A stretch of 64,000 nucleotides of DNA from Burkholderiales bacterium. Its GTDB lineage: Bacteria; Pseudomonadota; Gammaproteobacteria; Burkholderiales; SG8-39. Below are positions 9,263-59,802 of this stretch, piece after piece (position 1 is the stretch's first letter; every line of letters starts with the position of its first letter). A program made the translations under genes and the position numbers. Location: positions 1,459 to 65,458 of the forward strand of contig DATIWX010000135.1 of NCBI GenBank assembly GCA_035519135.1, given 5' to 3'. The notes under the pieces were generated by a model. It was not told where the DNA came from, did no database searches, and was given only the letters and a program-made list of their open reading frames with translations.

Positions 9263-9291
9263 AGGTACGACCCTAAGGCCTAACGCCCAAG

Positions 9292-9708
9292 CTAAGCCGT
9301 GGGCCCGCCGGGGGCGGGACTGTCTGCTTGAGCGCCCTGTTGGGCGTAACCAGCTAGTTGCTGCCTACACATTGCTAACCATAACAGCAGGAAGCCCAGG
9401 AGTGCTCCGGCGCTGGCGATGCCAACCGGCCCATTCATGACGAGATACCAGAAGAACGGCAGAGTAAGAATGATGACGGCACCCATGACGAGCCGGAGAG
9501 ACGACGGTCCAAACTTACCAACCGCGCTCAAAAAGCAAAGAAGAAAGAAAGCCAATGGAGTTGCCAGAGTAAAAACGACCGCTGGATTTGCACGGCCAGC
9601 TCCAAACCCGCTCATGCCGACGATGAAGAGGAACATGGCACCCCACCCAAGCAGGCCGCAAAAGCTCACCAAACCAACAAGCCATCTCAGCATGTCAGTG
9701 ACGCGCAA
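9292..9708 (-). CDS. hypothetical integral membrane protein
   Basis: 138-aa ORF, hydrophobic throughout, with lower-GC codon usage. Confidence 0.5.
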   Translation of the reverse strand: MRVTDMLRWLVGLVSFCGLLGWGAMFLFIVGMSGFGAGRANPAVVFTLATPLAFFLLCFLSAVGKFGPSSLRLVMGAVIILTLPFFWYLVMNGPVGIASAGALLGFLLLWLAMCRQQLAGYAQQGAQADSPAPGGPTA

Positions 9709-9944
9709 CAGTAAACAGTAAATAGTCTTCCCAAAACCGGCCTAATCTGGCGTGCCAGTCTACGCTCGGTGAAGTTGTCCTTCAAACTCACGGGGATGCA
9801 AACGCCGTCTTCGAGCTGTGGCCGCGATAGATTGTGCGAGAAGGGTCAAGTGTCTGTTCTGCCAAGGGGTGAAACCCCGCATGACGAAGGCCGGCTGAGG
9901 GCGCCGGTTTTCTGGTGCCGGCCGGAGCGGGGTGCCGCGGACCT

Positions 9945-11030: not shown

Positions 11031-11046
11031 CCGGCCAGGAGCGGAC

Positions 11047-11535
11047 ATGGCGGACGCAACGAAACTTCAGCTGATGCGCGAGTCGGCGCTCGCGACGGAG
11101 CTCGATGCGAAGCAGTGCGCCGTGCTCGCTGATCTGGTCACGGTGCGCGACCTCGCCGACGGCGAGGTGCTGGTCGACGAGGGCGCGAGCGACGATCACG
11201 TGCACACCGTCGTGAGCGGAACGCTCGCGGTGGCGAAGCAGGTCCCGCCGGGAGGCCAGTGGATCAACCTGAACGTCCTCACCAAGGGCGACCTCGCCGG
11301 CGAGCTGGCTTTCATGGACGGCAAGCCGCACTACGCGGCTCTCCGCGCGGTCGGCCCGACCAGGATACTGAGCCTGAAGCGCGAAAGACTCGAATCGCTT
11401 CTCGGCAGCGAGCCGCTCATCGTCTATCGGGTGATGCGCGCCATCTTCCGCGTCGTGCACGGCATACTGCATCGCATGGCGCTGCAGGCGAGCGAGCTCA
11501 CCAATTACATCTACAAGCAGCACGGCAAATACTAG
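11047..11535 (+). CDS. cyclic nucleotide-binding domain protein with no DNA-binding domain
   Basis: 162 aa with a cNMP-binding signature (..GDLAGELAFMDGKPHYAALRAVG..). It is too short to carry a C-terminal HTH. Confidence 0.75.
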   Translation: MADATKLQLMRESALATELDAKQCAVLADLVTVRDLADGEVLVDEGASDDHVHTVVSGTLAVAKQVPPGGQWINLNVLTKGDLAGELAFMDGKPHYAALRAVGPTRILSLKRERLESLLGSEPLIVYRVMRAIFRVVHGILHRMALQASELTNYIYKQHGKY

Positions 11536-11553
11536 GGCCGGAGGTGATTGGGT

Positions 11554-13191: not shown

Positions 13192-14140
13192 GATCGACGT
13201 CTTCAACGGCGACGCGGACGGCATGTGTTCGCTGCGCCAGCTTCGCCTCGCCGAGCCGGCCGACTCGCTGCTGGTCACCGGCCCGAAGCGGGACATCGCC
13301 CTGCTCGACCGCGTCCGGGCCGGGGCGGGCGACGTCGTGACCGTTCTCGACATCTCCCTCGAGCGCAACCGCGCGGCGCTGCTCGCGCTTCTCGGGCGCG
13401 GCGCGCGAGTGCGCTACTTCGATCATCACTTCGCGGGCGAGGTGCCCGTGCATCCGCGGCTCGAGGCCGTGCTCGACGCGTCGCCCGAGAGCTGTACCAG
13501 CGTGCTCGTCGACCGCCACCTCGGCGGGCGCTTCCGCGCCTGGGCTGTGGTCGGGGCCTTCGGCGACAATCTGGACGAGGTCGCGTTGCGCCTGGGCGGC
13601 TCGCTCGCCCTGGGCGCCGCGGAGCTGGAGAAGCTGCGCGAGCTGGGGCGCGGCCTCAACTACAACGCCTACGGCGGGAGCGAGTCCGACCTGCTGGTGC
13701 GTCCTGCGCGGCTGTACGGGCTGCTCGCCCAATACGAGGATCCGCTGAAGTTCGCCGCCAGGGAAAGGATCTTCAGGCGCCTGCAGGGCGCGATGCACGC
13801 GGATCTCAAGGCGGCCATGAGCGTGCCGCCGCACTGGTCGGGCGAGCGCGCCAGCGCGTACCTGCTCCCGAACCGCCCGTCCAGCCGCCGCGTCCTCGGC
13901 GTGTTCGCGAATCATCTTGCCCGCGTCGAGCCGCGCCGCGCGCACGCGGTGCTCGCACCCGAGTCGAACGGCGGCTACATCGTGAGCCTGCGCGTGCCCG
14001 AGACGAGCGGAACGAGCGCCGACGCCTTCTGCCGGGAATTCCCCTCCGGGGGCGGACGGCGCACCGCGGCGGGCATCGACGAGCTGCCCGAGGAGCGGCT
14101 GGCCGAGCTCGTCGAGCGGTTTGCCGCGACGTTCGGCTAG
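13184..14140 (+). CDS. DHH-family phosphoesterase-like protein
   Basis: It overlaps the upstream gene by 8 nt. Motifs are GDADG and YFDHHF. Confidence 0.6.
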   Translation: MAEIDVFNGDADGMCSLRQLRLAEPADSLLVTGPKRDIALLDRVRAGAGDVVTVLDISLERNRAALLALLGRGARVRYFDHHFAGEVPVHPRLEAVLDASPESCTSVLVDRHLGGRFRAWAVVGAFGDNLDEVALRLGGSLALGAAELEKLRELGRGLNYNAYGGSESDLLVRPARLYGLLAQYEDPLKFAARERIFRRLQGAMHADLKAAMSVPPHWSGERASAYLLPNRPSSRRVLGVFANHLARVEPRRAHAVLAPESNGGYIVSLRVPETSGTSADAFCREFPSGGGRRTAAGIDELPEERLAELVERFAATFG

Positions 14141-29534: not shown

Positions 29535-29978
29535 ATGTATGCAAACATCCTCGTACCCGTCGACGGCTCGCGGCTGTCGGACAAGGCCTTGAAAGAGGCA
29601 GCCATGCTCGCGAAGACGGGCAACGGCAAGCTGCTCCTGTTCCATGTGGTGGCGCCCTACCAGATGCCCGTATACGCGGAAGGGATGACGATGCCGACCA
29701 TTCCCAAGGAGAGGTTCGCGAAGATGTCGGCGCGCAGGGCCGGCCGGGTCCTCGCCGCCGCCGAGAAGAAGGCGAAGGCGGCCAAGGTGCCGGCAAGCCG
29801 CGCCTGGGCCATCAGCGGCTCGCCGCACGACGCGATCGTCGATATCGCGCGCAGGCGCAGGTGCGACCTGATCGTCATGGCCTCGCACGGTCGCCGCGGT
29901 CTGTCGCGGCTGTTGCTGGGAAGCGAAACGCAGGCGGTGCTGTCGCGCGTGAGCGTGCCGGTCCTGGTCGTGCGCTAG
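29535..29978 (+). CDS. universal stress protein (single Usp domain)
   Basis: 147 aa: MYANILVPVDGS..., ..MASHGRRGLSRLLLGSET..VLVVR. Confidence 0.85.
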   Translation: MYANILVPVDGSRLSDKALKEAAMLAKTGNGKLLLFHVVAPYQMPVYAEGMTMPTIPKERFAKMSARRAGRVLAAAEKKAKAAKVPASRAWAISGSPHDAIVDIARRRRCDLIVMASHGRRGLSRLLLGSETQAVLSRVSVPVLVVR

Positions 29979-29994
29979 GTCGCGGGCAGGCATC

Positions 29995-31486
29995 GTGTCC
30001 GCCACGGCTCCGTCGCCGGCGACATCGGGCGTTTCCGAGGTCAAACCCTGGGGCCTGCTCGCGGCGCTCGCCGCATTGGTGGTCGTCTGCGCCCTGCCGA
30101 CTCCCCAGGGCCTGCCGCCCGCCGGCCAGTATATGCTGGGGATGCTGCTGTTCTCGGTGATCCTGTGGATGACCGAGGCGGTGGACTACGCCATCAGCGC
30201 GGTCCTGATCGCTGCCCTGATGGCATTCCTGCTCGGGCTCGCGCCCAACGTCGCCAGGCCCGAACAGGCGCTCGGTACGAGCGCCGCGCTCGGCCTCGCG
30301 ATGAGCGGCTTCGCCAACACCGCGCTCGCGCTCGTCGCCGCGGCGACCTTCCTGTCGGCGGCGATGACCGTGACCGGACTGGACAAGCGCATCGCGCTGT
30401 TCGTGCTCTCCAAGGTCGGCGCGAAGACGCACCGCGTCGTGGTGGGGGCGATCATCGTCGGCATCGTGCTCGCTTTTCTGGTGCCTTCGACGACCGCCCG
30501 GGTCGCCTGCCTCGTTCCGATCATGATGGGCATCATCCTCGCCTTCGGCGTCGACAGGCAGTCGCGCTTCGCCGGGCTGCTCATCATCACGACGGCGCAA
30601 GCCGCCTCGATCTGGAACGTCGGCATCAAGACGGCCGCCGCGCAGAACATGGTGGCCATCGGCTTCATCGAGAAGACGCTCAAGGGGACGATCACCTATC
30701 CGGAATGGCTGATCGCCGCCGCGCCCTGGGCGATCCTCATGTCGATCGTGCTCTACATCGTCATGGTGAGGATGATGCCGCCCGAAATGGACGAGGTCGC
30801 GGGCGGCGAGGAGGCGATCCGCAGGGCGCTGGCGCAGCTCGGGCCGACGAGCGCCGCCGAATGGAGGCTGCTCGCCGTGTCGCTCTCGCTCCTGGTCCTC
30901 TGGGCGACGGAGGGCATCCTGCATCGTTTCGACACCTCGACGACCACGGTCGCGGCGATCGGCATCCTGTTCCTGCCGTGGATCGGCGTGATGGGCTGGA
31001 AGCAGGCGCAGCCGAGGATTCCCTGGGGCACGCTCGTGCTCTTCGGCATCGGCATCTCGCTCGGCACGGCACTGCTGCAGACCAAGGCCGCCGGCTGGCT
31101 CGCCGACATCATCGTCAGGAACCTGGGACTCGCCGACTCGTCGGCGTTCGCGATCATCGCGCTGATGTCCCTGTTCCTCATCGTCGTGCACCTGGGCTTC
31201 GCCAGCGCGACCGCGCTCGCCTCGGCGATGATCCCGATCATGATCGGCGTGCTGCAGGCGATCAAGACGCCCGGACTGAACCTCATCGGCATGACCATGA
31301 TCCTGCAGTTCGTGGTGAGCTTCGGCTTCATTCTCCCGGTGAATGCGCCGCAGAACATGGTCGCCTACGGAACCGGGGCGTTCACCGTCAAGGACTTCGT
31401 GAAGACCGGCCTGGTGCTCACGCTGGCCGGCTACGCGCTGGTGCTGCTGCTCGGCGCGACCTACTGGAGATGGATGGGCTACCTCG

Positions 31487-31494
<8 letters not shown>
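29995..31494 (+). CDS. SLC13/DASS-family anion permease
   Basis: 499 aa and polytopic, with ..MLGMLLFSVILWMTEAV.. and a repeated hairpin-type architecture. GTG start. Confidence 0.7.
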
Positions 31495-32605
<1,111 letters not shown>

Positions 32606-32639
32606 TTTCAAAGGGTAAAGAGCTTCGGCCCGCCGCGGA

Positions 32640-32653
32640 TTGACCCATGTCAA
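32640..32653. promoter_or_regulatory. FNR/FixK-type box variant TTGACCCATGTCAA (symmetric, 2 mismatches) in the ald/polX divergent region
   Basis: Its centre is 41.5 bp from the ald ATG (32605) and 53.5 bp from the polX ATG (32700). Confidence 0.5.
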
Positions 32654-32699
32654 CCGACCGGTCGGCGAGTCGGCCATTATCCATATTGGAGGCTTGGCG

Positions 32700-34487
32700 A
32701 TGGGCAGACCGGCTGGCGAGGTTTCAGCAACGAAGGCGGGGGCGGTCCACAACGCCGATATCGCGCGCGCTTTCGAGGAGATCGCCGACCGGCTCGAGAT
32801 CGGCGACGCGAACCCGTTTCGCGTGCGGGCCTATCGCAACGCTGCCCGGGTGGTGGGCGAGCTGAAGCTCGATGTCGCGGCGAAGATCCGCGGTGGCGAG
32901 GCGCTGCCCAAGCTTCCGGGAATCGGCGAGGACCTGGCGGGCAAGCTCGGCGAGCTCGCGACGACCGGCCGTTGCGAGATGCTCGAGCGCCTGCGCAGGA
33001 AAATGCCGCCCGCGATCACCGAGCTGCTGCGCGTCCCGGGGCTGGGACCGAAGCGCGTCAGGGCGCTTTACCGCGAGCTCGGCGTGCAGACCCTGGAGCA
33101 GCTCCAGCGCGCGGCGCGCGACGGCCGGATCCGCGAGCTCCCGGGCTTCGGCGAGAAGTCCGAGCTGAACCTGCTGGAGTCGGTCGAGGCGCGGCTTTCG
33201 AAGGCGCGGCGCTTCAAGCTGGCCGTCGCGGCGCAGTACGCCGAGGCGCTCGCCGCGTACCTGCGCGAGTCCGCCGGTGTCGGCAAGGTCGTCGTGGCGG
33301 GCAGCCTGCGCCGCATGCGCGAGACGGTCGGCGACATCGACATTCTCGCGACGGCCGACGCCTTCAGCGATGTCATGGAGCGCTTCGTGCGCTACGGCGA
33401 GGTGAAGGACGTGCTGTCCCACGGCGAGACGCGATCGAGCGTGCTGCTCGCCTCGGGCATCCAGGCCGACCTGCGCGTCGTTCCGCGGGAGAGCTACGGC
33501 GCCGCGCTGCACTACCTGACCGGCTCGAAGGCACACAACATCGCCGTCAGGCAGCTCGCCCAGGCGCGCGGCATGAAGCTCAACGAGTACGGCGTCTTCC
33601 GGAGCGCGAAGCGCGTCGCCGGCGACACCGAGGAATCGGTGTTCGAAGCCGTGGGCCTGCCCTACATCGAGCCCGAGCTGCGCGAGGAGCACGGCGAGAT
33701 CGAGGCGGCGCGCTCAGGGCGCCTGCCCAAGCTGGTCGAGCTCGGCGACCTCCGGGGCGACCTGCACGCCCACAGCAAGTGGAGCGACGGCCGGAACACG
33801 ATCCGCGAGATGGCGCTCGCCGCGCGGGAGCACGGGCTTGCGTATCTCGCCATCACCGATCATTCGCGGCGGCTCGCCATGGCGCACGGGCTCGACCCGG
33901 AACGTCTGCGGCGGCAATGGAGCGAGATCGAGGCGACCGAGGTTCCGGGCATCACGCTGCTGAAGGGCATCGAGGTCGACGTGCTGGAGGACGGGACGCT
34001 CGATCTGCCCGACTCCGTGCTCGGCGGGCTGGACATCGTGATCGCGGCCGTGCACAGCAAGTTCAATCTCTCGCGCGAGCGCCAGACCGAGCGCATCCTG
34101 CGCGCCCTCGACCATCCGCTCGTCGCCCTGCTCGCGCACCCGCTGGGCCGGCTGATCGACGCGCGCGAGCCCTACGACGTGGACATGCTAAGGATCGTGC
34201 GCAAGGCCGCCGCACGCGGGCGCCACCTCGAATTGAACGCGCATCCGGAGCGCCTGGATCTCCTCGATACGCACTGCCGCATGGCGAAGGACGAGGGCGT
34301 GCTGGTCAGCATCAATTCCGACGCGCACAGCGCGCTCGAGTTCGACAACCTGAAATACGGCATCGGTCAGGCAAGGCGGGGATGGCTGGAGAGGAAGGAC
34401 GTGCTCAACGCGCTTTCGCTTGCCGAGCTGCGCCGGCTGCTGCCGGTCGCGCAGTCCGGCGGGCAGCGCGAGAAAGGGCCTGCCTGA
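32700..34487 (+). CDS. polX: family X DNA polymerase with a C-terminal PHP phosphoesterase domain (PolX)
   Basis: ..IARAFEEIADRLEIGDANPFRVRAYRNAA.., HhH motifs (LPGIGEDLA, VPGLGPKRV, LPGFGEKS), and a PHP domain (..DLHAHSKWSDG..). The start at 32700 is my choice among alternatives. Confidence 0.8.
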   Translation: MGRPAGEVSATKAGAVHNADIARAFEEIADRLEIGDANPFRVRAYRNAARVVGELKLDVAAKIRGGEALPKLPGIGEDLAGKLGELATTGRCEMLERLRRKMPPAITELLRVPGLGPKRVRALYRELGVQTLEQLQRAARDGRIRELPGFGEKSELNLLESVEARLSKARRFKLAVAAQYAEALAAYLRESAGVGKVVVAGSLRRMRETVGDIDILATADAFSDVMERFVRYGEVKDVLSHGETRSSVLLASGIQADLRVVPRESYGAALHYLTGSKAHNIAVRQLAQARGMKLNEYGVFRSAKRVAGDTEESVFEAVGLPYIEPELREEHGEIEAARSGRLPKLVELGDLRGDLHAHSKWSDGRNTIREMALAAREHGLAYLAITDHSRRLAMAHGLDPERLRRQWSEIEATEVPGITLLKGIEVDVLEDGTLDLPDSVLGGLDIVIAAVHSKFNLSRERQTERILRALDHPLVALLAHPLGRLIDAREPYDVDMLRIVRKAAARGRHLELNAHPERLDLLDTHCRMAKDEGVLVSINSDAHSALEFDNLKYGIGQARRGWLERKDVLNALSLAELRRLLPVAQSGGQREKGPA

Positions 34488-34900
34488 AAAGCTTTTCCTA
34501 TTTCGAGCACGACGCCGATATCGGTATCATCGGCAGGGGCGCGACGCTGGAGAGGGCGTTCGAGTCCGCCGCCGAAGCGATGTTCGCCGTCATGGCCGAT
34601 CCGCAATCGCTGCTGCGGGAATCGCAGGAGGTGTCGGTGTCCTTCACCGAGGACGATGTCGAGCTGGCGCTGGTCCAGTGGCTCAACGCCCTGCTCGGCG
34701 CGGCGAGGGAGCGGGGCGCGGTGTTCCGCCGCTTCGCGCTCGCGCGCGAAGGCCCGCGCTGGAGCGGCCGCGCCTGGGGCGAGCCCTGGCGCGAGAGTTC
34801 GGAGCGGGGCACGGAAGTGAAGGGCGCGACGCTCACCATGCTCTCAGTGAGGCAGGCGGACGGAGCGGGCTGGGAAGCCCGCTGCGTGATCGACGTCTAG
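34484..34900 (+). CDS. archease (RtcB activator)
   Basis: The conserved N-terminus ..FSYFEHDADIGIIGRGATLERAFESAAEAMF.. is present. The only nearby start candidates are a CTG at 34484 overlapping the polX stop (CTGA) and an in-frame ATG at 34382. Confidence 0.7.
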   Translation: MKSFSYFEHDADIGIIGRGATLERAFESAAEAMFAVMADPQSLLRESQEVSVSFTEDDVELALVQWLNALLGAARERGAVFRRFALAREGPRWSGRAWGEPWRESSERGTEVKGATLTMLSVRQADGAGWEARCVIDV

Positions 34901-34909
34901 GGGAAGCGA

Positions 34910-36343
34910 ATGGATCTCGAGCGACTGGAGCAGACCGGCCCCTGGGCCTGGCGCGTGAAGCGCGACCCGGGCGCCGAGCGCGCCGAGGCGGTTCTCTACG
35001 GCGACGCCGAGCTGCTGCGCACCATGGACGACAAGGTGCTCGAGCAGATCACCAACGTCGCCCGCCTTCCCGGCCTCGTCGGCCCGGCGCTCGCCATGCC
35101 CGACGCTCACTGGGGCTACGGCTTTCCGATCGGCGGCGTGGCGGCGTTCGATCCCGAGCGAGGCGGCATCATCTCCGCGGGCGGCGTGGGCTTCGACATC
35201 TCCTGCGGCATACGCTGCCTGCGAACGAGCCTCGCGGCGGAGGAAGTCGCGCCGCTGGCGTCTAGGCTCGCCGACAGCCTGTATCGCGACATTCCCGCCG
35301 GGGTCGGAGTCGAAGGCAGCCTGCAGCTCTCGATCGGAGAGCTGGATTCCGTCCTCAAGGACGGCGCACGCTGGGCGGTGCGCCACGGCTACGGCGAGGA
35401 AGCGGAGCTCGAATACGTGGAGGAGCGCGGCCGCGTCGAGGGCGCGAAGCCGCAGAACGTTTCGCAGCTGGCGAAGAAGCGCCAGCGCGGGGAGATGGGC
35501 ACGCTCGGCTCGGGCAACCACTACCTCGAGGTGCAGGTCGTCGAGCGCATCCACGACGCGGCGGCGGCGGAAGCCTACGGGCTCCGCACCGGGCAGGTCG
35601 TCGTTTCGATCCACTGCGGATCGCGCGGCCTCGGTCACCAGATCGGCACCGATTTCCTCGTCAGCCTCGCCAAGGCGGCCGGCCGGCTCGGGATCGCGCT
35701 CCCGGACCGCGAGCTCGCCTGCGCGCCGGTCCGCTCGCCCGAGGGCGAGCAGTACATCGGCGCCATGAACGCGGCGATCAACTGCGCGCTTGCGAACCGC
35801 CAGATCCTCGCGCATCTCGCGCGGCGGACTCTCGCGCATTTCTTCCCGGACGTGCGCGTCGAAACGCTGTTCGACGTCTCGCACAACACCTGCAAGCCGG
35901 AGCGCCACGAGGCGAACGGCAGGGAGCGCCTGCTGTGGGTGCACCGCAAGGGCGCGACGCGGGCGTTCGCGCCGGGCCATCCCGACATCCCGAAGCGCTA
36001 CCGCGAGGCCGGCCAGCCGGTGATCATCGGCGGCAGCATGGGCACCGGCTCGTACGTGCTCGCCGGCGTGGGCTCGAGCGAGGCGCGCGCCTGGAGCTCT
36101 GCGAGCCACGGCGCGGGACGCGCCATGAGCCGGCACCAGGCGCTCAGGCAATGGCAGGGCCGGCAGCTGGTCGATTCGCTGCGCGAGCGCGGTATCCTGA
36201 TCCGCACGCGCTCGATGCGCGGCGTCGCCGAGGAAGCCCCGGGCGCCTACAAGGACGTGGACCGCGTCGCCGAGGCGACCGAAGGCGCGGGGCTCGCGCG
36301 CCGCGTCGCCTTCCTGCGGCCGGTGGTCTGCGTGAAAGGCTGA
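34910..36343 (+). CDS. rtcB: RNA-splicing ligase RtcB
   Basis: 477 aa with ..AMPDAHWGYGFPIGGVAAF.., ..GSGNHYLEVQ.., ..HCGSRGLGHQI.., ..HRKGATRA.. Confidence 0.92.
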   Translation: MDLERLEQTGPWAWRVKRDPGAERAEAVLYGDAELLRTMDDKVLEQITNVARLPGLVGPALAMPDAHWGYGFPIGGVAAFDPERGGIISAGGVGFDISCGIRCLRTSLAAEEVAPLASRLADSLYRDIPAGVGVEGSLQLSIGELDSVLKDGARWAVRHGYGEEAELEYVEERGRVEGAKPQNVSQLAKKRQRGEMGTLGSGNHYLEVQVVERIHDAAAAEAYGLRTGQVVVSIHCGSRGLGHQIGTDFLVSLAKAAGRLGIALPDRELACAPVRSPEGEQYIGAMNAAINCALANRQILAHLARRTLAHFFPDVRVETLFDVSHNTCKPERHEANGRERLLWVHRKGATRAFAPGHPDIPKRYREAGQPVIIGGSMGTGSYVLAGVGSSEARAWSSASHGAGRAMSRHQALRQWQGRQLVDSLRERGILIRTRSMRGVAEEAPGAYKDVDRVAEATEGAGLARRVAFLRPVVCVKG

Positions 36344-36387
36344 GGCGGCTGGAACCCCGGAACCGATTTCGAAACAGGAGAAGACAC

Positions 36388-37227
36388 ATGGACTACAAGA
36401 CGATTCTCGTTCACCTCGACGCCGGCGCGCGCAGCACGGAGCGCCTTGAGCTCGCGCTGGCGCTCGCCGACCGCTACGACGCGCATCTGGTCGGCCTGTT
36501 CGCGCTGAGCGCGATGAGGACGCCCTCGTATGTCCGCGCCGATACCGTCGCCCTGCTGGTTGCCGCGCAGGAACGCCAGCGGGCCGAGGCGGCCGCCGCG
36601 GCCGAGGCGAAATTCCGCGCCGCCGCGGCGAGGTACGGCAGCGTGAAGGCGGAGTGGCGCGTCTCTCATGGGGATGCGCTGGGCGCGGTACAGCTGAGCG
36701 CGCGCTATTCCGATCTGGTGATCATCGGCCAGCGGGACCGCGATGCCGAGCGCGAAACCGGCATCGCCCCGGAATTCGTCGACGAGCTGGTCGTGTCATG
36801 CGGCCGTCCCGTACTGGTCGTTCCCTACGCCGGCCACTATCCCGATGCCGGCAAGAGAGTGCTGGTCGCCTGGAACGCGTCCGCCGAAGCGTCGCGGGCC
36901 ATGTCGGACGCCTTGCCGCTGCTCGCGCGCGCCGAGCGCGTCAATGTTGTCGTGTTCCACGCCGGGAGCCCCGGCGACCACGGCGAGGAACCGGGCGCGG
37001 ACGCCGCCCTGTACCTCGCGCGCCACGGCGTGAAGGCCGCGGTGTCGCGCTACGGCAGTCCGGGGCTGGATATCGGGTCGCAGATCCTCTCCCGCGCCGC
37101 CGACCTGACGGTCGATCTCATCGTGATGGGCGCCTACGGGCACTCCAGGATCCGCGAGCTCGTGCTCGGGGGCGCGACGCGGTCGCTGCTCGAGTCCATG
37201 ACCGCGCCGGTCCTGATGTCGCGCTGA
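36388..37227 (+). CDS. universal stress protein (tandem Usp domains)
   Basis: 279 aa from MDYKTILVHLDAG.. The second domain ends ..MGAYGHSRIRELVLGGATRSLL..PVLMSR. Confidence 0.85.
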   Translation: MDYKTILVHLDAGARSTERLELALALADRYDAHLVGLFALSAMRTPSYVRADTVALLVAAQERQRAEAAAAAEAKFRAAAARYGSVKAEWRVSHGDALGAVQLSARYSDLVIIGQRDRDAERETGIAPEFVDELVVSCGRPVLVVPYAGHYPDAGKRVLVAWNASAEASRAMSDALPLLARAERVNVVVFHAGSPGDHGEEPGADAALYLARHGVKAAVSRYGSPGLDIGSQILSRAADLTVDLIVMGAYGHSRIRELVLGGATRSLLESMTAPVLMSR

Positions 37228-37261
37228 ACCGGTTGGTGCGGCCCCGGCGACAAGCCCGCTA

Positions 37262-37275
37262 TTGATCCAGGTCAA
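37262..37275. promoter_or_regulatory. FNR/FixK-type box TTGATCCAGGTCAA
   Basis: Its centre is 71.5 bp upstream of the ATG at 37340. Confidence 0.6.
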
Positions 37276-37339
37276 GGTGCGCCGCGGGCGTGGGCATAGC
37301 GTTGAAGGATCGCGGCGGAATCGGACATCGGGAAGCGTC

Positions 37340-37933
37340 ATGGCGGACGGAGTCACTCGCCGGGAATTTCTGAAGGGCACGGGCGCAGTCATCACCGGCG
37401 TCGCCATGCTCGACCAGAGCGCGGCTGCCGAGCGCGGTCCGGGAGCGGCGGCCGCGGACTCCGGCCAGGTCGAGATTCTTCTTCACGTGAACGGCGCAAG
37501 GCGGAGCGTGAGCGTCGAGCCGCAGATGACTCTCGCGGAAGTCCTGCGCGGGCCGCTCGATCTGACCGGCACGAAAATCGGCTGCGACCGCGGCGCCTGC
37601 TCCGCCTGCACGGTGTGGCTCGATCGCGAGCCGGTTCTCTCCTGCATGACGCTCGCGCTCGACGTCGGCGAGCGCGAGGTCGTGACCATCGAGGGCCTCG
37701 CGGGCGGCGGGCGCCTTCACCCGGTACAGTCCGCGTTCATCGCCCAAGACGCGGTTCAGTGCGGCTTCTGCACGCCGGGAATGGTGATGAGCTGCGCTGC
37801 ACTCCTGGAGAGGAATCCCGATCCCAGCCGTGAAGACGTCAAGGCGGCGATCGCAGGGCATCTTTGCCGCTGCGGCACGACGCCGCACGTGCTCGATGCG
37901 GTGCTCGAAGCGGCAAAGGCGGCGAAGGGTTGA
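37340..37933 (+). CDS. (2Fe-2S)-binding small subunit of a xanthine dehydrogenase-family molybdoenzyme, with a Tat signal (PaoA-like)
   Basis: Twin-arginine motif TRREFLKGTG. FeS motifs are CDRGACSACTV and QCGFCTPG. Confidence 0.85.
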   Translation: MADGVTRREFLKGTGAVITGVAMLDQSAAAERGPGAAAADSGQVEILLHVNGARRSVSVEPQMTLAEVLRGPLDLTGTKIGCDRGACSACTVWLDREPVLSCMTLALDVGEREVVTIEGLAGGGRLHPVQSAFIAQDAVQCGFCTPGMVMSCAALLERNPDPSREDVKAAIAGHLCRCGTTPHVLDAVLEAAKAAKG

Positions 37934-50221: not shown

Positions 50222-51235
50222 ATGCGTCCGATGCTCATGCCGCAGCTCGTAAACCCGGCGTTCGGCGACCCGGGCCTGTACGTGGATTTCCGCAACGAGA
50301 AGCGCGCGCTGCTCTTCGACATCGGCGACATCGGCATGCTCGCGCCGCGCAAGCTGCTGCGTCTCTCGCATGTGTTCGTCTCGCACACGCACATGGATCA
50401 TTTCATGGGCTTCGACGCGCTGCTGCGCGTGAGCCTGGGGCGCGATGTCGCGGTGCGCCTGTTCGGCCCGCCGGGATTCGTCGACCAGGTCGCGCACAAG
50501 CTCGCCGCCTACACCTGGAACCTCGCCGAATCCTACCCGGGCGATTTTTCGGTGCTCGGGTCGGAACTGCACGCGGACGGCAGGCTCATTTCGGCGCTGT
50601 TCCGCTGCCGGCGCCGCTTCGAGCGCGAAACGCTCGAGGAGGCGCATGTCGAGGACGGCATCCTGGTCGACGAACCCGGGTTCCGGGTTCGCACCGCGTT
50701 TCTCGAGCATCGAACCCCCTGCCTCGCCTTCGCCGTCGAAGAGAAGGCGCACGTCAACATCTGGAAGAATCGCCTCGACGAGATGGGCCTTCCGGTCGGA
50801 CCCTGGATCCGGGACCTCAAGGAAGCGGTGCTCGAAGGTGCGCCCGACGACGCGCCGGTCCGGGCCTCGTGGAAAGAGAAGGGCGAGCGGACGGAACGCG
50901 TTCTTGCCCTCGGTGAACTGAAGGCGCGGGCGCTGCAAGTCGTTCCGGGGGAGAAGCTGTGCTATGTGACCGACGCCGCGTTCAGCGTGCAGAACGCGCA
51001 GCGCATCGTCTCCCTGGCGAAAGACGCCGATCTGCTTTTCATCGAGTCGGTCTTCCTCCAGGAGGATGTCGATCAGGCGCAACGGAAGTGCCACCTGACG
51101 GCGCGCCAGGCGGGAGAGATCGCGCGCGCCGCCGGCGCGCGCGCCGTCGAGCCTTTCCACTTCTCCCCGCGCTACGCGGGGCGCGAAGGCGAGCTGCGTG
51201 CCGAGCTGGAGCTCGCGTTTCGCGGCTCGAGCTAG
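50222..51235 (+). CDS. metallo-beta-lactamase-fold hydrolase, RNase Z/ElaC-like
   Basis: ..VFVSHTHMDHFMGFD.. is the HxHxDH motif. The C-terminal part has ..HLTARQAGEIA.. Confidence 0.7.
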   Translation: MRPMLMPQLVNPAFGDPGLYVDFRNEKRALLFDIGDIGMLAPRKLLRLSHVFVSHTHMDHFMGFDALLRVSLGRDVAVRLFGPPGFVDQVAHKLAAYTWNLAESYPGDFSVLGSELHADGRLISALFRCRRRFERETLEEAHVEDGILVDEPGFRVRTAFLEHRTPCLAFAVEEKAHVNIWKNRLDEMGLPVGPWIRDLKEAVLEGAPDDAPVRASWKEKGERTERVLALGELKARALQVVPGEKLCYVTDAAFSVQNAQRIVSLAKDADLLFIESVFLQEDVDQAQRKCHLTARQAGEIARAAGARAVEPFHFSPRYAGREGELRAELELAFRGSS

Positions 51236-51501
51236 CCGGTCGAAGGCGGCGGCCCGCGGCGCCAGATCAGCTCGCCGTCCCGCCACACCTCGCGCACGCG
51301 ATGCAAGGGCACTGTGTGCAACGTGCCGTCGTCTTCCACCGCGTCGAAGGAGAAGTGCTCGCCAGAAGCAAAGTGGATGCGGCGGAACGGCACCTTGACG
51401 ATCCTCTTCGCGACATGGTCGTCGTAACCGACTGCAAACTCGGATTTCGAGAACTCCGGGTCCCAGCGGATGCGGTTGAGCAGGTCCTGGATGGGGATCA
51501 C
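51232..51501 (-). CDS. DUF504-family protein (found with RNA repair genes)
   Basis: 89 aa: ..LLNRIRWDPEF..VGYDDHV..VPLHRVREVWRDGELIWRR. ATGA overlap with the rtcA stop. Confidence 0.6.
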   Translation of the reverse strand: MIPIQDLLNRIRWDPEFSKSEFAVGYDDHVAKRIVKVPFRRIHFASGEHFSFDAVEDDGTLHTVPLHRVREVWRDGELIWRRGPPPSTG

Positions 51502-52529
51502 GGCGCGGCGAGGACGATCCGGGACAGCGCACCGGCCTGGGAGACTTCGAAGCGCACCGGCAGGAACTTCTCGATGAGCCAGATGCAGGTGCGGGCGTGC
51601 AAGCTCACGGCGCGCGTTGTCAGCGCACCACCCCGGGCGAGGGCGAAGTAGACCAGCAGCTGGTCGGCGGCGTGCAGGTCGACCGCGGCCCCCGCGGCGA
51701 GATCCGCGGCGAGCTCCGTCCCGGCCGCCTCGCCGAGCGCCTCGGCCCCTACGCCGCGCTCAGCGGTCCGTCCGGCACCGAGGACCGTGCTCTCGGCATG
51801 CGCCCAGGCGACGATCGCGCCGCCCGGGCCGATCGCCTCATCCGGGCCGAGCACGCGGCATGCGATGTCCGGCGTCACGCCTCGCAGCGATGCAAGCCGG
51901 TCGAGGGCGGAGGCGCGCATGCGCATGGCGATGTGCTCGGGCAGGTTCGCGACGTGCGCAAGCCCCGACAGGCTCCGCAATGCGCCGGGCGCGTCGAACG
52001 CGGCGGGCCGGAGCGCGGAAGGCGATACGGAGACCCGCACTTCCCCGCCGCCGTGCGGATAGTAGCCGCGTCTCCGGACCTCGAGCCGGACTCGCGCACC
52101 CATCCGCGAGAGGAGCTCCAGCAGGACCTCGCGAAAGTAGTCGAGCGGCGGCGCCATGCGCACGTCGGTTCCGCCGATGATGTCCGCGTCGCACGGCTTG
52201 CCGCTCGCGATCATCACCGGAAGCAAGGCTTGCAGGAGCAGTGTCACACTCCCGGCCGTGCCTACGTCGAAACGAAAACTGCCACCCTCCAGCGCGCGCG
52301 GCCTGAGGGTGAAGAACTGCGACCGAAGCTGCACGCCTTCGACGCTAGCGCCCGCGAGCGCGGCGACCGCCCGCACCGCCGCGACGTGCTGCGGGGCAAG
52401 CCCGGGCTTGTCCCGATTGGCGCGGACGTTGCGGACGGCGACCGGGCGACCGGTGATCGCCGAGAGCGCCGCGGCGGTGCGCACGACCTGGCCGCCGCCC
52501 TCTCCATAGGATCCGTCGAGTTCGAGCAC
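51498..52529 (-). CDS. rtcA: RNA 3'-terminal phosphate cyclase
   Basis: 343 aa: MLELDGSYGEGGGQVVRTAAALSAITGRPV..NRDKPGLAPQH.. Confidence 0.9.
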   Translation of the reverse strand: MLELDGSYGEGGGQVVRTAAALSAITGRPVAVRNVRANRDKPGLAPQHVAAVRAVAALAGASVEGVQLRSQFFTLRPRALEGGSFRFDVGTAGSVTLLLQALLPVMIASGKPCDADIIGGTDVRMAPPLDYFREVLLELLSRMGARVRLEVRRRGYYPHGGGEVRVSVSPSALRPAAFDAPGALRSLSGLAHVANLPEHIAMRMRASALDRLASLRGVTPDIACRVLGPDEAIGPGGAIVAWAHAESTVLGAGRTAERGVGAEALGEAAGTELAADLAAGAAVDLHAADQLLVYFALARGGALTTRAVSLHARTCIWLIEKFLPVRFEVSQAGALSRIVLAAP

Positions 52530-52554
52530 GCCTCTACGGCCGGCCCGCCAATCC

Positions 52555-52947
52555 TCAAAGCGTGGGTTTGCCGGGCTGGAGAAACTTCTTTTCGTAAGCG
52601 CTCTGGCAGGCGATACAGCGTTTCGCTGTCGGCTCGCTGCGCAACCGCGCCAGCCCGATCTCGCCGCCGCAATCGATGCACGTCCCGTAGCGGCCCTCGC
52701 TTATGCGGGCCAGGGCCGAGTCGATCTCGCGCAGCTCCTGCAGATCGCGGGAAAGCTCGGCGTTCTCGACGTCCGAGATGAGATCGGCGGTGGCTTCGTC
52801 ACCCGTATCCGCGACGGGCCCCGTCGACTGCGAGTAGACATCCTCGCGTGCCTTCGCCGCATCGGCGTGCGCTTCCACCTCGAGAAATTCGCGGCGCTTC
52901 GTCAGCGCCCCCTTGAGTTCCTGCAGTTGTTCGGGCTTCAGTGGCAT
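52555..52947 (-). CDS. DksA/TraR-family C4 zinc-finger protein
   Basis: 130 aa with a coiled-coil N-terminus and ..CIDCGGEI..RCIACQ.. Confidence 0.8.
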   Translation of the reverse strand: MPLKPEQLQELKGALTKRREFLEVEAHADAAKAREDVYSQSTGPVADTGDEATADLISDVENAELSRDLQELREIDSALARISEGRYGTCIDCGGEIGLARLRSEPTAKRCIACQSAYEKKFLQPGKPTL

Positions 52948-52973
52948 GGTGGTTCTCCGTGTCGGTGCTTCGT

Positions 52974-53537
52974 TCAGTCCGGTGCGTAGTCGAGCGGCCA
53001 GCGCTTCGAGAGGAAGCGGACGATGTGCGCGTCCGCGCCGGGCGAGCCATAGGTCCATACGGGCCCGTCCATGACGAGCTTGCCCAGCTTGCAAGGGCGG
53101 ATGTTCAGGGCGAGGACCGGCAGCTTGCGCTGCCGCAGTTCCGCCGCCTGCTCCTCGTATCCGGACTCGCCTTCGAAGAAAAGCCATTCTCGCACGAAGG
53201 CATCCTGCATCCGCTCCAGCTCGTGGCACAGGTCGATGGAGACCGGGACCGGCCGGTCGATCGGCGCTTCGCCCTTGGTGGAGGCCATGAGCCAGTTTCC
53301 GTAGACGTCGTCCTCGACCGACCGGTAGCAGACGGTCTCGCGGGTGGAGTAGTAATGCTCCAGCATGAAGAAACGGGCCGGATGCTCGTGTGCCCTCGCC
53401 CCCGTGAACCAGCCGTACACATGGTCCTCTCTGACGAACCAGAAGAGGGCACACACAAGCCCCGCACCGCGCAGTGCGTAGGCGACGTGAACATGGGGCT
53501 CGATCATGATTTCTCGACTGATTCCGGCAATCTCCAT
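52974..53537 (-). CDS. hypothetical protein, first gene of the apparent rtcA operon
   Basis: 187-aa ORF with normal-looking composition. I recognised no motif. Confidence 0.5.
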   Translation of the reverse strand: MEIAGISREIMIEPHVHVAYALRGAGLVCALFWFVREDHVYGWFTGARAHEHPARFFMLEHYYSTRETVCYRSVEDDVYGNWLMASTKGEAPIDRPVPVSIDLCHELERMQDAFVREWLFFEGESGYEEQAAELRQRKLPVLALNIRPCKLGKLVMDGPVWTYGSPGADAHIVRFLSKRWPLDYAPD

Positions 53538-53567
53538 TTGACTCTAGCCTCTCGACCGACTAATTCC

Positions 53568-53581
53568 TTGCGCTAGATCAA
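53568..53581. promoter_or_regulatory. degenerate FNR-type box TTGCGCTAGATCAA in a divergent region
   Basis: The right half-site is perfect and the left half matches 3/5. Its centre is 37.5 bp from the ATG at 53537 and 67.5 bp from the ATG at 53642. Confidence 0.35.
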
Positions 53582-53641: not shown

Positions 53642-54184
53642 ATGCAAGTCCCATTGGAGATTACGGTAAGGGGTATGCCGCACTCGCCCGCCCTCGAGGC
53701 GCGCATCCGCGAGAAGGCGGCAAGATTGGAGGAGTTCGATTCGCGCATCATCCGCTGCCACGTCATGGTGGAAGAGTCCGGCAAGCACCAGCATCAGGGG
53801 CATCGGTTTACCGTGCGCATCGACGTGCGCGTTCCCGGGCGCGAGATCGCGGTAACCCACGAACACCACGAGGACGTCTTCGTCGCGCTGCGGGACGCGT
53901 TTGACGCCGCCAAGCGACAGCTGGAGGACGTGGTCCGCGAGAAGCGCGGCGACGTCAAGGTCCACGTGGTCCCGCAGCACGGGCGCGTCGCGCGGCTCAG
54001 TTTCGACGAGGGCTTCGGTTTCATCGAGACCTCAGACGGACGGGAACTCTATTTCAGCCGTGAAAACGTCGTGTACCCGGCGTTCGAACGCTTGGAACCC
54101 GACATGCCGGTGCAGTTCATCGAGGAGGTTGCCGGTGAAGGTCCTCAGGCAAAGCGGGTGAGCGCCGGCAAGCACGCCGTTTAG
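53642..54184 (+). CDS. HPF/RaiA-type ribosome hibernation factor fused to a C-terminal cold-shock domain
   Basis: The N-terminus is MQVPLEITVRGMPHSPALEARIREKAARLEEF..FVALRDAFDAAKRQL. The C-terminus is ..GRVARLSFDEGFGFIETSDGRELYFS.. Confidence 0.8.
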   Translation: MQVPLEITVRGMPHSPALEARIREKAARLEEFDSRIIRCHVMVEESGKHQHQGHRFTVRIDVRVPGREIAVTHEHHEDVFVALRDAFDAAKRQLEDVVREKRGDVKVHVVPQHGRVARLSFDEGFGFIETSDGRELYFSRENVVYPAFERLEPDMPVQFIEEVAGEGPQAKRVSAGKHAV

Positions 54185-54693: not shown

Positions 54694-55143
54694 TCAGTGG
54701 CGCGACTGCTGCTCCTGGAAGCGCTCGCGCCCGATCACCTGGGCGAGCAAGATGATCTGTTCTCCGACGACCTTGAGCAGGTCGTCCAGGGTGACGATCC
54801 CAGCCAGCCCGCCCTGATCATCCACCACCGGTATGCGCCGCACGCCCTTGTGGCGCATGAGCTCCACCGTTTCGAAGATATCGCTTCCCTCGCCGACGGT
54901 GACGAGCTCCCGACCCATGAGGTCTCCCGCTGTGACTAGCGCCGGATCGACTTCCTTCGCCATGACCTCGACCACCAGATCCCGATCGGTGACGATGCCA
55001 ACGGCGACCTTCTTGCCGTTGGGCTGGTCGACGACTACGACGTCGCCCACGTGCGAATCCCGCATGAGTTGGGACAATTCGAGCGCGCTCGCCTTCCTGT
55101 GGCACTCGATCACTTCCCGGATACAAAAGTCTCCGACGCGCAT
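54694..55143 (-). CDS. CBS-domain pair protein
   Basis: 149 aa with two CBS repeats (..VGIVTDRDLV.., ..LAGIVTLDDLL..). Confidence 0.85.
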   Translation of the reverse strand: MRVGDFCIREVIECHRKASALELSQLMRDSHVGDVVVVDQPNGKKVAVGIVTDRDLVVEVMAKEVDPALVTAGDLMGRELVTVGEGSDIFETVELMRHKGVRRIPVVDDQGGLAGIVTLDDLLKVVGEQIILLAQVIGRERFQEQQSRH

Positions 55144-55259
55144 AAGGCCTCCTGCTCTCTCGCAACCGTTTTCAAAGATCCCGCTATTTCATTCTCGACG
55201 GCAGGCGGATCGTCCGCCCGGCGACCATGAACGCGCCGCGGCCCAGGAAGGCGACCACT

Positions 55260-59767: not shown

Positions 59768-59802
59768 GGGATCAAGACTAGGACCCTCGGCTCTCCCGGA
59801 GT

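Follow-up and report, generated by a model that had tools for sequence, protein, structure and literature searches.

Results

Organization of the polX-archease-rtcB locus

The window (the whole 64-kb stretch of DNA that was analysed) contains genes for a family X DNA polymerase (polX), archease, the RNA ligase RtcB and a tandem universal stress protein (USP), arranged head to tail in that order. An alanine dehydrogenase gene (ald) is transcribed divergently from polX, and the intergenic region between the two carries a palindrome. The features are as follows.

31487..32605, minus strand: ald, divergent from polX (Pfam AlaDh_PNT_N and AlaDh_PNT_C)
32612..32617, minus strand: predicted -10 hexamer TACCCT of a putative leaderless ald transcript, read off the sequence
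32640..32653, no strand assigned: FNR/Anr/FixK-type palindrome TTGACCCATGTCAA (TTGAC-N4-GTCAA) in the 94-bp ald-polX intergenic region
32675..32680, plus strand: predicted -10 hexamer CATTAT of a putative polX promoter, with CCAT invariant in four related loci
32688..32692, plus strand: Shine-Dalgarno sequence GGAGG of polX, identified from the sequence
32700-34487, plus strand: polX, family X DNA polymerase with PHP domain (Pfam)
34484-34900, plus strand: archease, with a probable CTG start (Pfam PF01951)
34910-36343, plus strand: rtcB, 3'-phosphate RNA ligase of the archease-dependent (Thermus/Pyrococcus) type (Pfam PF01139)
36388-37227, plus strand: usp, tandem universal stress protein gene (Pfam Usp, two stretches)

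The polX and archease genes meet in the sequence CTGA, in which the polX stop codon TGA (34485-34487) overlaps the CTG at 34484-34486. The archease stop codon TAG ends at 34900, 9 nt ahead of the rtcB ATG, and 44 nt separate the end of rtcB (36343) from the ATG of the USP gene (36388). A terminator scan found none in the gaps between the polX, archease, rtcB and USP genes, the single terminator-like match being inside rtcB. On the 3' side the next box is at 37262, past the USP stop codon, and the USP gene is probably the last of the unit. The three genes also lie together behind a matching box in L164 and L165-167, which are independent contigs from other samples; in L002, the closest reference genome, the order is permuted to archease-rtcB-polX, behind a homologous box and promoter. 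The original prediction described polX, archease and rtcB as one operon, joined by CTGA at 34484-34487 and by a 9-nt gap, with a tandem USP gene next. The coordinates and the Pfam Usp matches agree with this description, and the overlap, the short gaps, the lack of an intergenic terminator and the recurrence of the trio in other contigs suggest that the three genes are co-transcribed.

The encoded proteins

PolX matches the Pfam domains HHH_8, HHH_5, DNA_pol_B_thumb and PHP, with DNA_pol_B_palm falling below the Pfam cutoff, and has the expected succession of 8-kDa HhH domain, fingers, palm, thumb and PHP. It matches PolX of T. thermophilus (3au2) over the full length (E=1e-144). The catalytic triad D212, D214 and D257 (GS-RR...GD212xD214...D257) is invariant in 20 homologues, as are the PHP ligands H356, H358, D363, H388, E425, H452, H480, D541 and H543. 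As judged by these residues and domains, the polX product belongs to the canonical bacterial family X polymerases that carry a PHP domain.

Archease aligns to the whole of PF01951 (E=8e-34, model positions 1-136 of 136, residues 4-138 of 138), and its N-terminal acidic motif (xFEHxADIG) is present as SYFEHDADIG, in line with the homologues. No in-frame ATG, GTG or TTG retains this motif, the first in-frame ATG (at about 34580) being downstream of it, so that the CTG at 34484 is the sole option and translation probably starts there, inside the CTGA overlap. L164, which comes from an independent sample, has an identical CTGA junction and likewise lacks an ordinary full-length start; in L165 there is an ATG 3 nt past the polX stop, and in L041 an ATGA overlap. 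CTG start codons are normally very inefficient, and archease could therefore be produced at a low level.

RtcB covers all of PF01139 (E=3e-167, model positions 1-426 of 426), and the proteins nearest to it are T. thermophilus TTHA1785 and P. horikoshii PH1602. The metal-binding Asp, Cys and His residues and the guanylylated His are in place: an alignment to 1uc2 shows that the residues matching P. horikoshii D95, C98, N202, H203, H234, H329 and H404 are kept, and the motifs GFDISCG, GSGNHYLEV, HCGSRGLGHQ, VSHNTCK and SHGAGR are present. On these features the rtcB product is an archease-dependent 3'-phosphate/5'-OH RNA ligase, with ligase activity being predicted. Multiple turnover of the Thermus enzyme requires archease (PMC4604427).

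The box between ald and polX

The palindrome TTGACCCATGTCAA is a perfect 5+5 match of the TTGA-N6-TCAA kind, and 53.5 nt separate its centre from the polX ATG (32700) downstream, in agreement with the symmetric TTGAC-N4-GTCAA box of the original prediction. The centre is also 41.5 nt from the ald ATG (32605, minus strand), a point absent from that prediction, and because of this the promoter is probably bidirectional. The distance to the ald ATG is the same in the window, L164 and L165, and the polX ATG is 40.5 nt from the box centre in L164 and 41.5 nt in L165. No Shine-Dalgarno sequence was found ahead of the ald ATG, and the candidate ald -10 hexamer keeps the form TAnnnT in position (TACTCT in L164, TAGGCT in L165). 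The polX transcript is likely to start at about 32687-32688, which would place the box at about -41.5. Both candidate -10 hexamers, and the spacing of 40.5-41.5 nt between box and ATG (L164, L165, ald), would fit a class II (-41.5) geometry with the predicted start sites. A sigma70 consensus scan found no promoter, an outcome expected for activator-dependent promoters.

No variation is seen among the window, L164, L165 and L002 in the ald start, both half-sites, the polX -10 CCAT or the ATGGGCA start, and the flanks of the box drift among relatives while the half-sites stay fixed. The window has 13 copies of TTGA-N6-TCAA where 0.22 would be expected, and none of 100 shuffles reaches 13, so the polX box is beyond chance; with one mismatch allowed there are 22 boxes against 6.5 expected. 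Measured from box to ATG, the distances in the window form two clusters, 41.5-42.5 nt (ald, ABC ATPase, Hsp70, FtsH) and 65.5-71.5 nt (LTXXQ protein, nitroreductase, 2Fe-2S subunit, DUF883, HPF), the pattern that class II sites would produce if their mRNAs were leaderless or had short leaders. In four cases a single box serves a divergent gene pair.

Boxes of this kind are also enriched about tenfold before the same genes in other lineages of Proteobacteria. Of 78 polX loci, 12 have a perfect box in the 200 bp ahead of the gene (1.2 expected, P=5e-9), and of 61 archease-rtcB loci, 11 do (1.3 expected, P=1e-7). The FNR-type box that was originally proposed thus stands up well, with its invariant half-sites, its 13 copies in the window and its enrichment before polX and archease-rtcB. 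Many polX-rtcB clusters elsewhere have no perfect box (for example Nitrosomonadaceae L017, L024 and L040 and Rhodocyclaceae L041 and L069), which indicates that FNR-type control is lineage-specific and not universal.

Linkage of polX and rtcB in other genomes

A survey of synteny, suggested together with the original prediction, shows that the link recurs: of 80 genome loci anchored on polX, 20 have rtcB no more than 6 kb away, in five gene arrangements that span Beta- and Gammaproteobacteria. No other gene neighbours polX as often as rtcB, which is usually immediately adjacent (16 of the 20 linked loci have no intervening gene). Conversely, polX is found in the flanks of 11 out of 80 rtcB-anchored metagenome contigs. 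The pairing is therefore recurrent in many environmental bacteria. The CBS protein, HPF-CSD, the APH-AAA_33 kinase and FtsH are other genes of the island that recur beside polX. A literature search found no paper describing the polX-rtcB link.

RtcR, sigma54 and the separate rtcA unit

The RNA cyclase gene rtcA is in a different unit, with the following features.

51232..53507, minus strand: RNA-end unit of an unknown ORF, a DksA/TraR zinc finger, rtcA and an MJ1316 cyclic-end recognition protein (Pfam RTC, RTC_insert, zf-dskA_traR, MJ1316)
51498-52529, minus strand: rtcA (Pfam RTC, RTC_insert)
53568..53581, no strand assigned: one-mismatch box TTGCGCTAGATCAA between the rtcA unit and a divergent HPF-CSD gene, from the one-mismatch box scan

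The distance from rtcA to rtcB is 15.2 kb, in keeping with the 15 kb originally given, and the two are on opposite strands. None of the window ORFs scanned matches the Sigma54_activat domain, and the enhancer-binding-protein motifs GAFTGA, ESELFGH and GExGTGK (Walker A) are missing from all six frames of the window. The sigma54 promoter sequence TGGCAC-N5-TTGC was not found with up to 2 mismatches in 29916-35879 or upstream of the rtcA unit. Domain and motif scans of the 64 kb thus bear out the claim that rtcR is absent from the window, and the promoter scans near these genes argue against sigma54 control. The window contains no Y RNA or other Rfam family.

Gene content of the island

The surrounding genes include USPs, nitroreductases, HPF-CSD, a CBS protein, FtsH and Hsp70 paralogues, ccoP and ccoG, together with an alcohol dehydrogenase and ald. 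No nir or nor denitrification genes are present in the window, and no gene for a regulator of the CRP/FNR family. The sole cNMP-binding ORF in the window (within 10894-11535) leaves no space for the helix-turn-helix (HTH) domain with which such a regulator would bind DNA.

The low-oxygen-induced lxa locus of Burkholderia cenocepacia carries 17 copies of the motif TGA-N6-TCA (PMC3721108). The 13 boxes in 64 kb, many of them intergenic, and the USPs and stress and metabolic genes that accompany them suggest that the window is a low-oxygen island of the same kind. By analogy, the island may be induced at low oxygen and have a role in anoxic survival. Both are Burkholderiales islands of tens of kilobases with many intergenic TGA-N6-TCA motifs, and they share USPs, a nitroreductase, a sulphate-type transporter, an FtsH-like protease and an alcohol dehydrogenase. 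There is no mention of polX, archease, rtcB or rtcA in the text of the lxa paper or in its table of low-oxygen-induced gene expression (PMC3721108), and B. cenocepacia differs from the window in that its polX, although beside ald, has no box within 9 kb.

Discussion

We propose that the window is an FNR/Anr-type low-oxygen stress island of an uncultured Burkholderiales, in which the box drives ald and, divergently, polX-archease-rtcB-usp for joint repair of DNA and RNA. We give this a probability of roughly 0.65; which regulator acts, whether the genes respond to oxygen, where transcription starts, that the genes share one transcript, that archease uses the CTG and what polX-archease-rtcB does physiologically are predictions within it. 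A CRP/FNR-family activator, encoded outside the window, would bind TTGAC-N4-GTCAA in the 94-bp spacer and drive two divergent class II promoters. The ald mRNA would be leaderless, starting 41.5 nt from the box, and the polX-archease-rtcB-usp mRNA would start at about 32687 with a 12-nt leader carrying the Shine-Dalgarno sequence. Translation of polX, archease and rtcB would be coupled, through the CTG in the CTGA overlap and the rtcB start 9 nt on. Under oxygen limitation and growth arrest RtcB, PolX and USP would be made together: archease-activated, multiple-turnover RtcB would reseal RNAs with 2',3'-cyclic phosphate or 3'-phosphate ends, and the polymerase and PHP nuclease/phosphatase of PolX would clean and fill DNA gaps without replication. 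There are thus hints that DNA and RNA break repair are turned on together at oxygen depletion, and a maintenance module for a non-growing state would fit the surrounding gene content. A box-driven operon would put rtcB under an environmental signal, and not under the damage-sensing RtcR/sigma54 circuit of enterobacteria.

Other forms of control can be weighed against this. Just 64 kb of the genome is visible and an RtcR/sigma54 circuit encoded elsewhere could act on polX-archease-rtcB, but we consider this very improbable, given that there is no sigma54-type promoter upstream of polX, archease, rtcB or the rtcA unit and no enhancer-binding-protein motif in the window, that rtcB is of the archease-dependent Thermus/Pyrococcus type, and that rtcR normally adjoins its target operon (PMC7790460). 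The box might belong to ald alone, with polX-archease-rtcB transcribed from an unrelated and possibly constitutive promoter. The spacing to the ald ATG is indeed perfectly kept in the window, L164 and L165, together with the TAnnnT -10, and hypoxic induction of ald is known in mycobacteria. However, the polX ATG is about as close to the box in L164 and L165, many loci with no ald nearby have boxes before polX or archease-rtcB, the 94-bp spacer is too short for a second independent promoter, and single boxes between divergent pairs recur in the window, all of which makes an ald-only box improbable. The sensor acting at the box could by its motif be any member of the CRP/FNR family. The TTGA-N6-TCAA core is common to FNR, Anr and FixK, which sense oxygen, and to Dnr and NnrR, which sense NO, and cannot tell the two groups apart. 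A non-oxygen signal, such as NO (Dnr/NnrR type) or another redox or metabolic cue, would also be consistent with the lack of a regulator gene in the window and with position 5 of the box, which is C/G (TTGAC...GTCAA) in TTGACCCATGTCAA and in most boxes before polX or archease elsewhere, as against TTGAT...ATCAA in the majority of the remaining window boxes. We regard such a signal as unlikely, since ccoP/ccoG, the USPs, the nitroreductases, alcohol dehydrogenase and ald favour oxygen limitation, nir and nor are missing from the window, and the lxa motif is experimentally oxygen-responsive (PMC3721108).

A different question is whether PolX and RtcB-archease share a substrate, namely DNA breaks with 3'-phosphate/5'-OH ends, so that the operon would be one DNA-end repair pathway and not two parallel activities. 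RtcB would seal the ends or cap them as DNA3'pp5'G, and either PolX would extend the cap or PHP would unblock the 3' end and the polymerase fill. RtcB does guanylylate the 3'-phosphate ends of DNA, and from this cap polymerase beta, an X-family enzyme, carries out a single templated extension step (PMC4381079); activation of the RtcR-controlled Salmonella rsr-yrlBA-rtcBA raises survival after mitomycin C, a DNA-damaging agent (PMC7790460). The position of rtcB as the top polX neighbour, mostly directly adjacent and in five arrangements across Beta- and Gammaproteobacteria, is also in its favour. Against this, other island genes recur beside polX as well, so that membership of a shared regulon could account for the closeness of polX and rtcB; the linked rtcA and MJ1316 genes indicate RNA ends; and the proteobacterial PolX-RtcB pairing is known from genes alone. 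A common substrate is therefore a tentative idea that we hold to be rather unlikely.

The canonical PolX with its PHP domain resembles those surveyed by Prostova et al. (2022), who found PolX neighbourhoods that are specific to taxonomic class and include LigD, MutS2/ZapA, a stand-alone PHP domain and an ATP-dependent ligase, with efflux and multicopper oxidase proteins in Betaproteobacteria; RtcB and archease are absent from the text and from the supplements consulted (PMC9226535). The enterobacterial rtcBA operon (rsr-yrlBA-rtcBA, under RtcR/sigma54) similarly combines the RtcB 3'-phosphate ligase and RtcA cyclase for RNA-end repair, and is stress-induced. It differs from the present case, where rtcB and rtcA are in separate units with no rtcR or sigma54 promoter in the window, and where an archease-dependent rtcB is joined to archease and polX behind an FNR-type palindrome, with no Y RNA. 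Archease immediately upstream of rtcB is also the arrangement of the archaeal/Thermus archease-RtcB 'tRNA splicing operon' (PMC3973293, PMC4604427), to which polX, USP, a hypoxia island, an FNR-type box and an archease CTG overlapping the polX stop are added here.

[quoted passage not shown] DosR is a NarL-type response regulator, as opposed to the CRP/FNR-type site here, and its block has no PolX linked to rtcB. Within that block (Rv2623-Rv2631), Rv2631 is RtcB, and we take Rv2630 to be archease. Hypoxia-controlled archease-rtcB is already known from this regulon, in which RtcB is accompanied, as in the window, by USPs, nitroreductases, a CBS protein and an HPF-like protein and serves hypoxic non-replicating survival (PMC5309233).

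Structure of the predicted polX-archease-rtcB operon

The window has a G+C content of about 68%, and true reading frames were picked out by third-position G+C. The features of the locus are as follows, with Pfam matches in brackets.

Features of the polX-archease-rtcB locus
31487-32605, minus strand: alanine dehydrogenase gene ald, divergent, upstream of polX
32640-32653: palindromic box TTGACCCATGTCAA, in the 94-bp ald-polX spacer (32606-32699)
32700-34487, plus strand: PolX (HHH_8, HHH_5, DNA_pol_B_thumb, PHP)
34484-34900, plus strand: archease (PF01951, whole length)
34910-36343, plus strand: RtcB (PF01139, E=3e-167)
36388-37227, plus strand: two-domain USP (Pfam match)

The Pfam matches confirm the gene calls of the original prediction, namely polX, archease, rtcB and a tandem USP gene. 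The junctions it described were also found: the polX stop codon TGA (34485-34487) overlaps a CTG at 34484, and archease and rtcB are separated by 9 nt. The box is likewise where it had been placed, with its centre 53.5 nt ahead of the polX ATG. The gap between rtcB and USP is 44 nt. Scanning 32300-37500 with sigma70 and terminator consensus patterns yielded no promoters at all, and no terminator-like or promoter-like site in the intergenic parts of the operon; the single terminator-like site falls inside rtcB and is within chance expectation. Searches of the whole window with Rfam (gathering thresholds) and ARAGORN found no Y RNA, riboswitch or tRNA.

A probable shared ald/polX promoter

The box is a TTGA-N6-TCAA palindrome of the FNR/Anr/FixK type, and its centre lies 41.5 nt from the ald ATG. 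On the polX side the spacing differs from that in two related metagenome contigs, where the box centre is 40.5 nt (L164) and 41.5 nt (L165) from the polX ATG. Relative to these, the stretch before the polX ATG is longer by about 13 nt in the window, and the additional sequence supplies an SD (GGAGG, 32688-32692). Across the window, L164, L165 and the closest reference genome (L002), the ald start, both half-sites, the CCAT of a candidate polX -10 element and the ATGGGCA start are invariant, and other positions drift. The model with the best support has ald and polX-archease-rtcB-usp sharing one bidirectional class II promoter of the FNR type, which would switch on both transcripts under limiting oxygen, in a stasis programme. 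Transcription would then begin near 32687 on the plus strand and near 32605 on the minus strand.

The archease start codon

The archease has kept its N-terminal SYFEHDADIG motif, and there is no in-frame ATG, GTG or TTG ahead of it. The metagenome gene caller had shortened the protein to 106 residues. The same CTGA junction is present in L164 (about 2368-2371; polX 91% identical), which comes from an independent JGI sample, and the CTG is therefore real sequence. The corresponding junction has an archease ATG 3 nt past the polX stop in L165 (polX 85% identical), and an ATGA overlap in a Rhodocyclaceae locus (L041). Most probably the CTG is the start codon, relying on termination-reinitiation coupling. 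The archease would be a natural example of a CTG start within a translationally coupling overlap.

Gene order in close relatives

The layout of ald, box and polX-archease-rtcB is kept on contigs from other samples (L164 and L165-L167). The genes after rtcB vary: L164 has a USP gene, and L165-L167 have HSP20, Lon protease and USP (L165 11682-15404), as against the single USP gene of the window. L002, whose polX is 81% identical, has archease-rtcB-polX behind the homologous promoter. That the same box still heads the trio in this permuted order is the strongest in-silico evidence for a three-gene unit controlled by the box.

The start of polX may retain a trace of this permutation. The window polX (32700-32745) has a 13-residue N-terminal extension (MGRPAGEVSATKA), and the conserved core begins at Val16, where other PolX proteins start MPVHNADIA. 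The extension opens with ATGGGCAG, as does the archease start of L002, and also holds CCGGCTGG, which is present in the rtcB-polX spacer of L002 (L002 3530-3545 and 5404-5425 were compared). Tentatively, the window order may have arisen by recombination that joined what had been the start of archease (ATGGGCAG) to the spacer between rtcB and polX (CCGGCTGG); we put this no more strongly because the matches are only 8-9 nt long.

Predicted activity of PolX and RtcB

PolX aligns end to end with Thermus thermophilus PolX (3au2, E=1e-144). Both the catalytic set GS-RR-GDxD...D and the full complement of nine PHP metal ligands are conserved in an alignment of 20 homologues. By published criteria (PMC9226535) the protein is a canonical PolX. 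Its top matches are from uncultured Burkholderiales and Betaproteobacteria. RtcB is most similar to archease-dependent enzymes, those from T. thermophilus and P. horikoshii (E about 1e-150), and its Asp, Cys and His metal ligands and guanylylated histidine are retained. The identical RtcB is encoded on one ENA metagenome contig. Judged by these residues, both enzymes look active.

Linkage of polX and rtcB in other genomes

Two surveys were made, one of 80 polX-anchored loci in reference genomes and one of 80 rtcB-anchored metagenome contigs. In the first, rtcB lies within 6 kb of polX in 20 of the 80 loci, in 16 of them with no intervening gene. The five arrangements are polX-archease-rtcB, archease-rtcB-polX, divergent and convergent pairs, and pairs with spacer genes between them. 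Linkage was seen in Nitrosovibrio, Nitrosospira, Rhodocyclaceae and Casimicrobiaceae, among others, and in MAGs with no label finer than Gammaproteobacteria or Proteobacteria. Carriers of a polX-rtcB cluster include Nitrosospira sp. NpAV and Nitrosovibrio sp. Nv4. In the second survey, where flanks were often short, archease precedes rtcB in most contigs, and polX occurs in the flanks of 11/80.

Of 78 loci, 12 have a perfect box in the 200 bp before polX (1.2 expected, P=5e-9); ahead of archease, the figure is 11 of 61 (1.3 expected, P=1e-7). Several clusters, those of Nitrosomonadaceae and Rhodocyclaceae, have no perfect box, so FNR-type control is common but not universal. A PolX search of a plasmid and chromid collection gave two further arrangements: in Burkholderia cenocepacia (L082, NZ_CP091013.1, listed as a plasmid) polX is convergent with ald and there are no boxes, and on a Cupriavidus plasmid a box precedes a nitroreductase-polX pair, with no rtcB.

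A predicted low-oxygen island

The window contains 13 perfect TTGA-N6-TCAA boxes, compared to 0.22 expected in 64 kb, and read against the ORF map nearly all are intergenic.

Positions of perfect boxes
9945, 18701, 24343, 26476, 29464, 32640, 37262, 44446, 45556, 49613, 49649, 55643, 59803

Measured from box centre to nearest ATG, the spacings cluster at 41.5-42.5 nt (ald, an ABC ATPase, Hsp70 and FtsH) and at 65.5-71.5 nt (an LTXXQ protein, a nitroreductase, a 2Fe-2S subunit, DUF883 and HPF). Class II FNR-type promoters would be expected to give such spacings, which suggest leaderless or short-leader mRNAs; the window would then offer a whole series of class II FNR-type promoters whose transcripts appear to be leaderless. 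Four divergent pairs are arranged around one box each: ald/polX, ABC ATPase/nitroreductase, FtsH/Hsp70, and an unknown ORF/HPF, the last with one mismatch in the box. Genes present include ccoP, ccoG, several USPs, two nitroreductases, alcohol dehydrogenase and ald, together with a fusion of ribosome hibernation factor and cold-shock domain (HPF-CSD), a CBS protein, FtsH and Hsp70 paralogues, and acyl-CoA ligases.

From its boxes and gene content, the whole window is a predicted low-oxygen island of the lxa type. A close counterpart is the low-oxygen-activated (lxa) locus of B. cenocepacia, whose 50 genes are accompanied by 17 TGA-N6-TCA motifs and whose expression rises by as much as 240-fold at low oxygen (PMC3721108). 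The gene content is also like that of the Mycobacterium tuberculosis DosR regulon.

Search for RtcR, sigma54 sites and a regulator

Bacterial RtcB is usually discussed within the RtcR/sigma54 circuit, which senses damaged tRNA. It had been proposed that such control is absent, and within the window this is supported: no scanned ORF has a sigma54-activator domain, the motifs GAFTGA, ESELFGH and GExGTGK occur in none of the six frames of the window, and neither polX nor rtcB nor the rtcA unit is preceded by a -24/-12-like site. One perfect sigma54-type TGGCACTTCCGTTGC is present (51079-51093, minus strand); it falls within an ORF of the metallo-beta-lactamase (MBL) fold that runs on the plus strand (about 50231-51235), and it lies downstream of the rtcA unit. 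Since fewer sigma54 sites were counted overall than expected, this one probably arose by chance.

No CRP/FNR regulator gene was found within the window. A cNMP-binding ORF within 10894-11535 was rejected, as it has no HTH_Crp_2 match and only about 40 residues past the cNMP domain, and the low-GC stretch at 8400-9900 holds just small membrane-protein ORFs.

Functional implications

In the proposed stasis programme, RtcB and archease would reseal cleaved RNAs, and PolX would clean and fill DNA gaps. Archease is known to enable multiple turnover by Thermus RtcB (PMC4604427). RtcB can also cap DNA 3'-phosphate ends as DNAppG, and the cap is extended by polymerase beta (PMC4381079). A more speculative proposal, which we consider unlikely, is that RtcB-archease and PolX form an unrecognised bacterial pathway for DNA breaks with 3'-phosphate/5'-OH ends, which FNR-type regulators would switch on in Proteobacteria that are starved of oxygen and not replicating. 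RtcB would seal or G-cap the end, and PolX would extend it, or clean it via its PHP domain. The tight and repeatedly reshuffled linkage of polX and rtcB is suggestive of such a pathway, but shared membership of a regulon would account for it equally well. To our knowledge, capping and sealing of DNA 3'-phosphates by RtcB is known only in vitro, and the pathway, if true, would be the first physiological context for this chemistry. The linkage makes it directly testable whether RtcB acts on DNA in vivo.

Control by the box points to a second, widespread mode of RtcB control, in which archease-dependent RtcB would be tied to an FNR-type site in hypoxia islands of many environmental Beta- and Gammaproteobacteria. 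This parallels the M. tuberculosis DosR dormancy regulon, although DosR is an unrelated regulator. Earlier work has already described operons of archease and rtcB (PMC3973293), control of rtcB by hypoxia in M. tuberculosis (PMC5309233) and islands of the lxa type (PMC3721108). No paper with "RtcB" and "PolX" together was found in the literature searched, which did not include the RtcB-neighbourhood survey of Burroughs and Aravind (2016), and the accessible part of a published PolX-neighbourhood survey does not have RtcB or archease among the neighbours (PMC9226535). What is new is therefore a version of the RtcB repair operon that is linked to polX and predicted to be controlled by an FNR-type box.

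The rtcA unit and other recurrent neighbours

The gene rtcA is in its own unit (51232-53581 including its box, minus strand), composed of an unknown ORF, a DksA/TraR zinc finger protein, rtcA and an MJ1316 "RNA cyclic group end recognition" protein.

Features of the rtcA unit and neighbouring genes
51498-52529, minus strand: rtcA
53568-53581: one-mismatch box, upstream of the rtcA unit
53642-54184: HPF-CSD (S30AE and cold-shock domain)
54694-55188: CBS-pair protein
57872-59812: extra FtsH paralogue
59851-61674: extra Hsp70 paralogue

The HPF-CSD, CBS-pair, FtsH and Hsp70 genes are the commonest other neighbours of polX or rtcB in other genomes, a set that recalls the mycobacterial DosR regulon. 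Recurrent neighbours comprise the CBS protein, HPF-CSD, an APH-AAA_33 kinase with a weak DHHA1 partner, FtsH, rtcA and MJ1316. MJ1316 directly follows rtcB in two loci (L069 and L162).

In the window (11548-14140), a protein with both an aminoglycoside-phosphotransferase-like and an AAA_33 kinase domain precedes an ORF that matches DHHA1 weakly. The kinase, with or without the DHHA1 partner, adjoins polX or rtcB in L003, L014, L022, L045, L072, L092, L098 and L099. The pair could be a kinase/phosphoesterase end-healing module of the same network.

Finally, ald repeatedly adjoins polX or rtcB (L082, L003, L033, L137), in varying orientation (same strand, convergent or divergent) and also at loci that lack a box.
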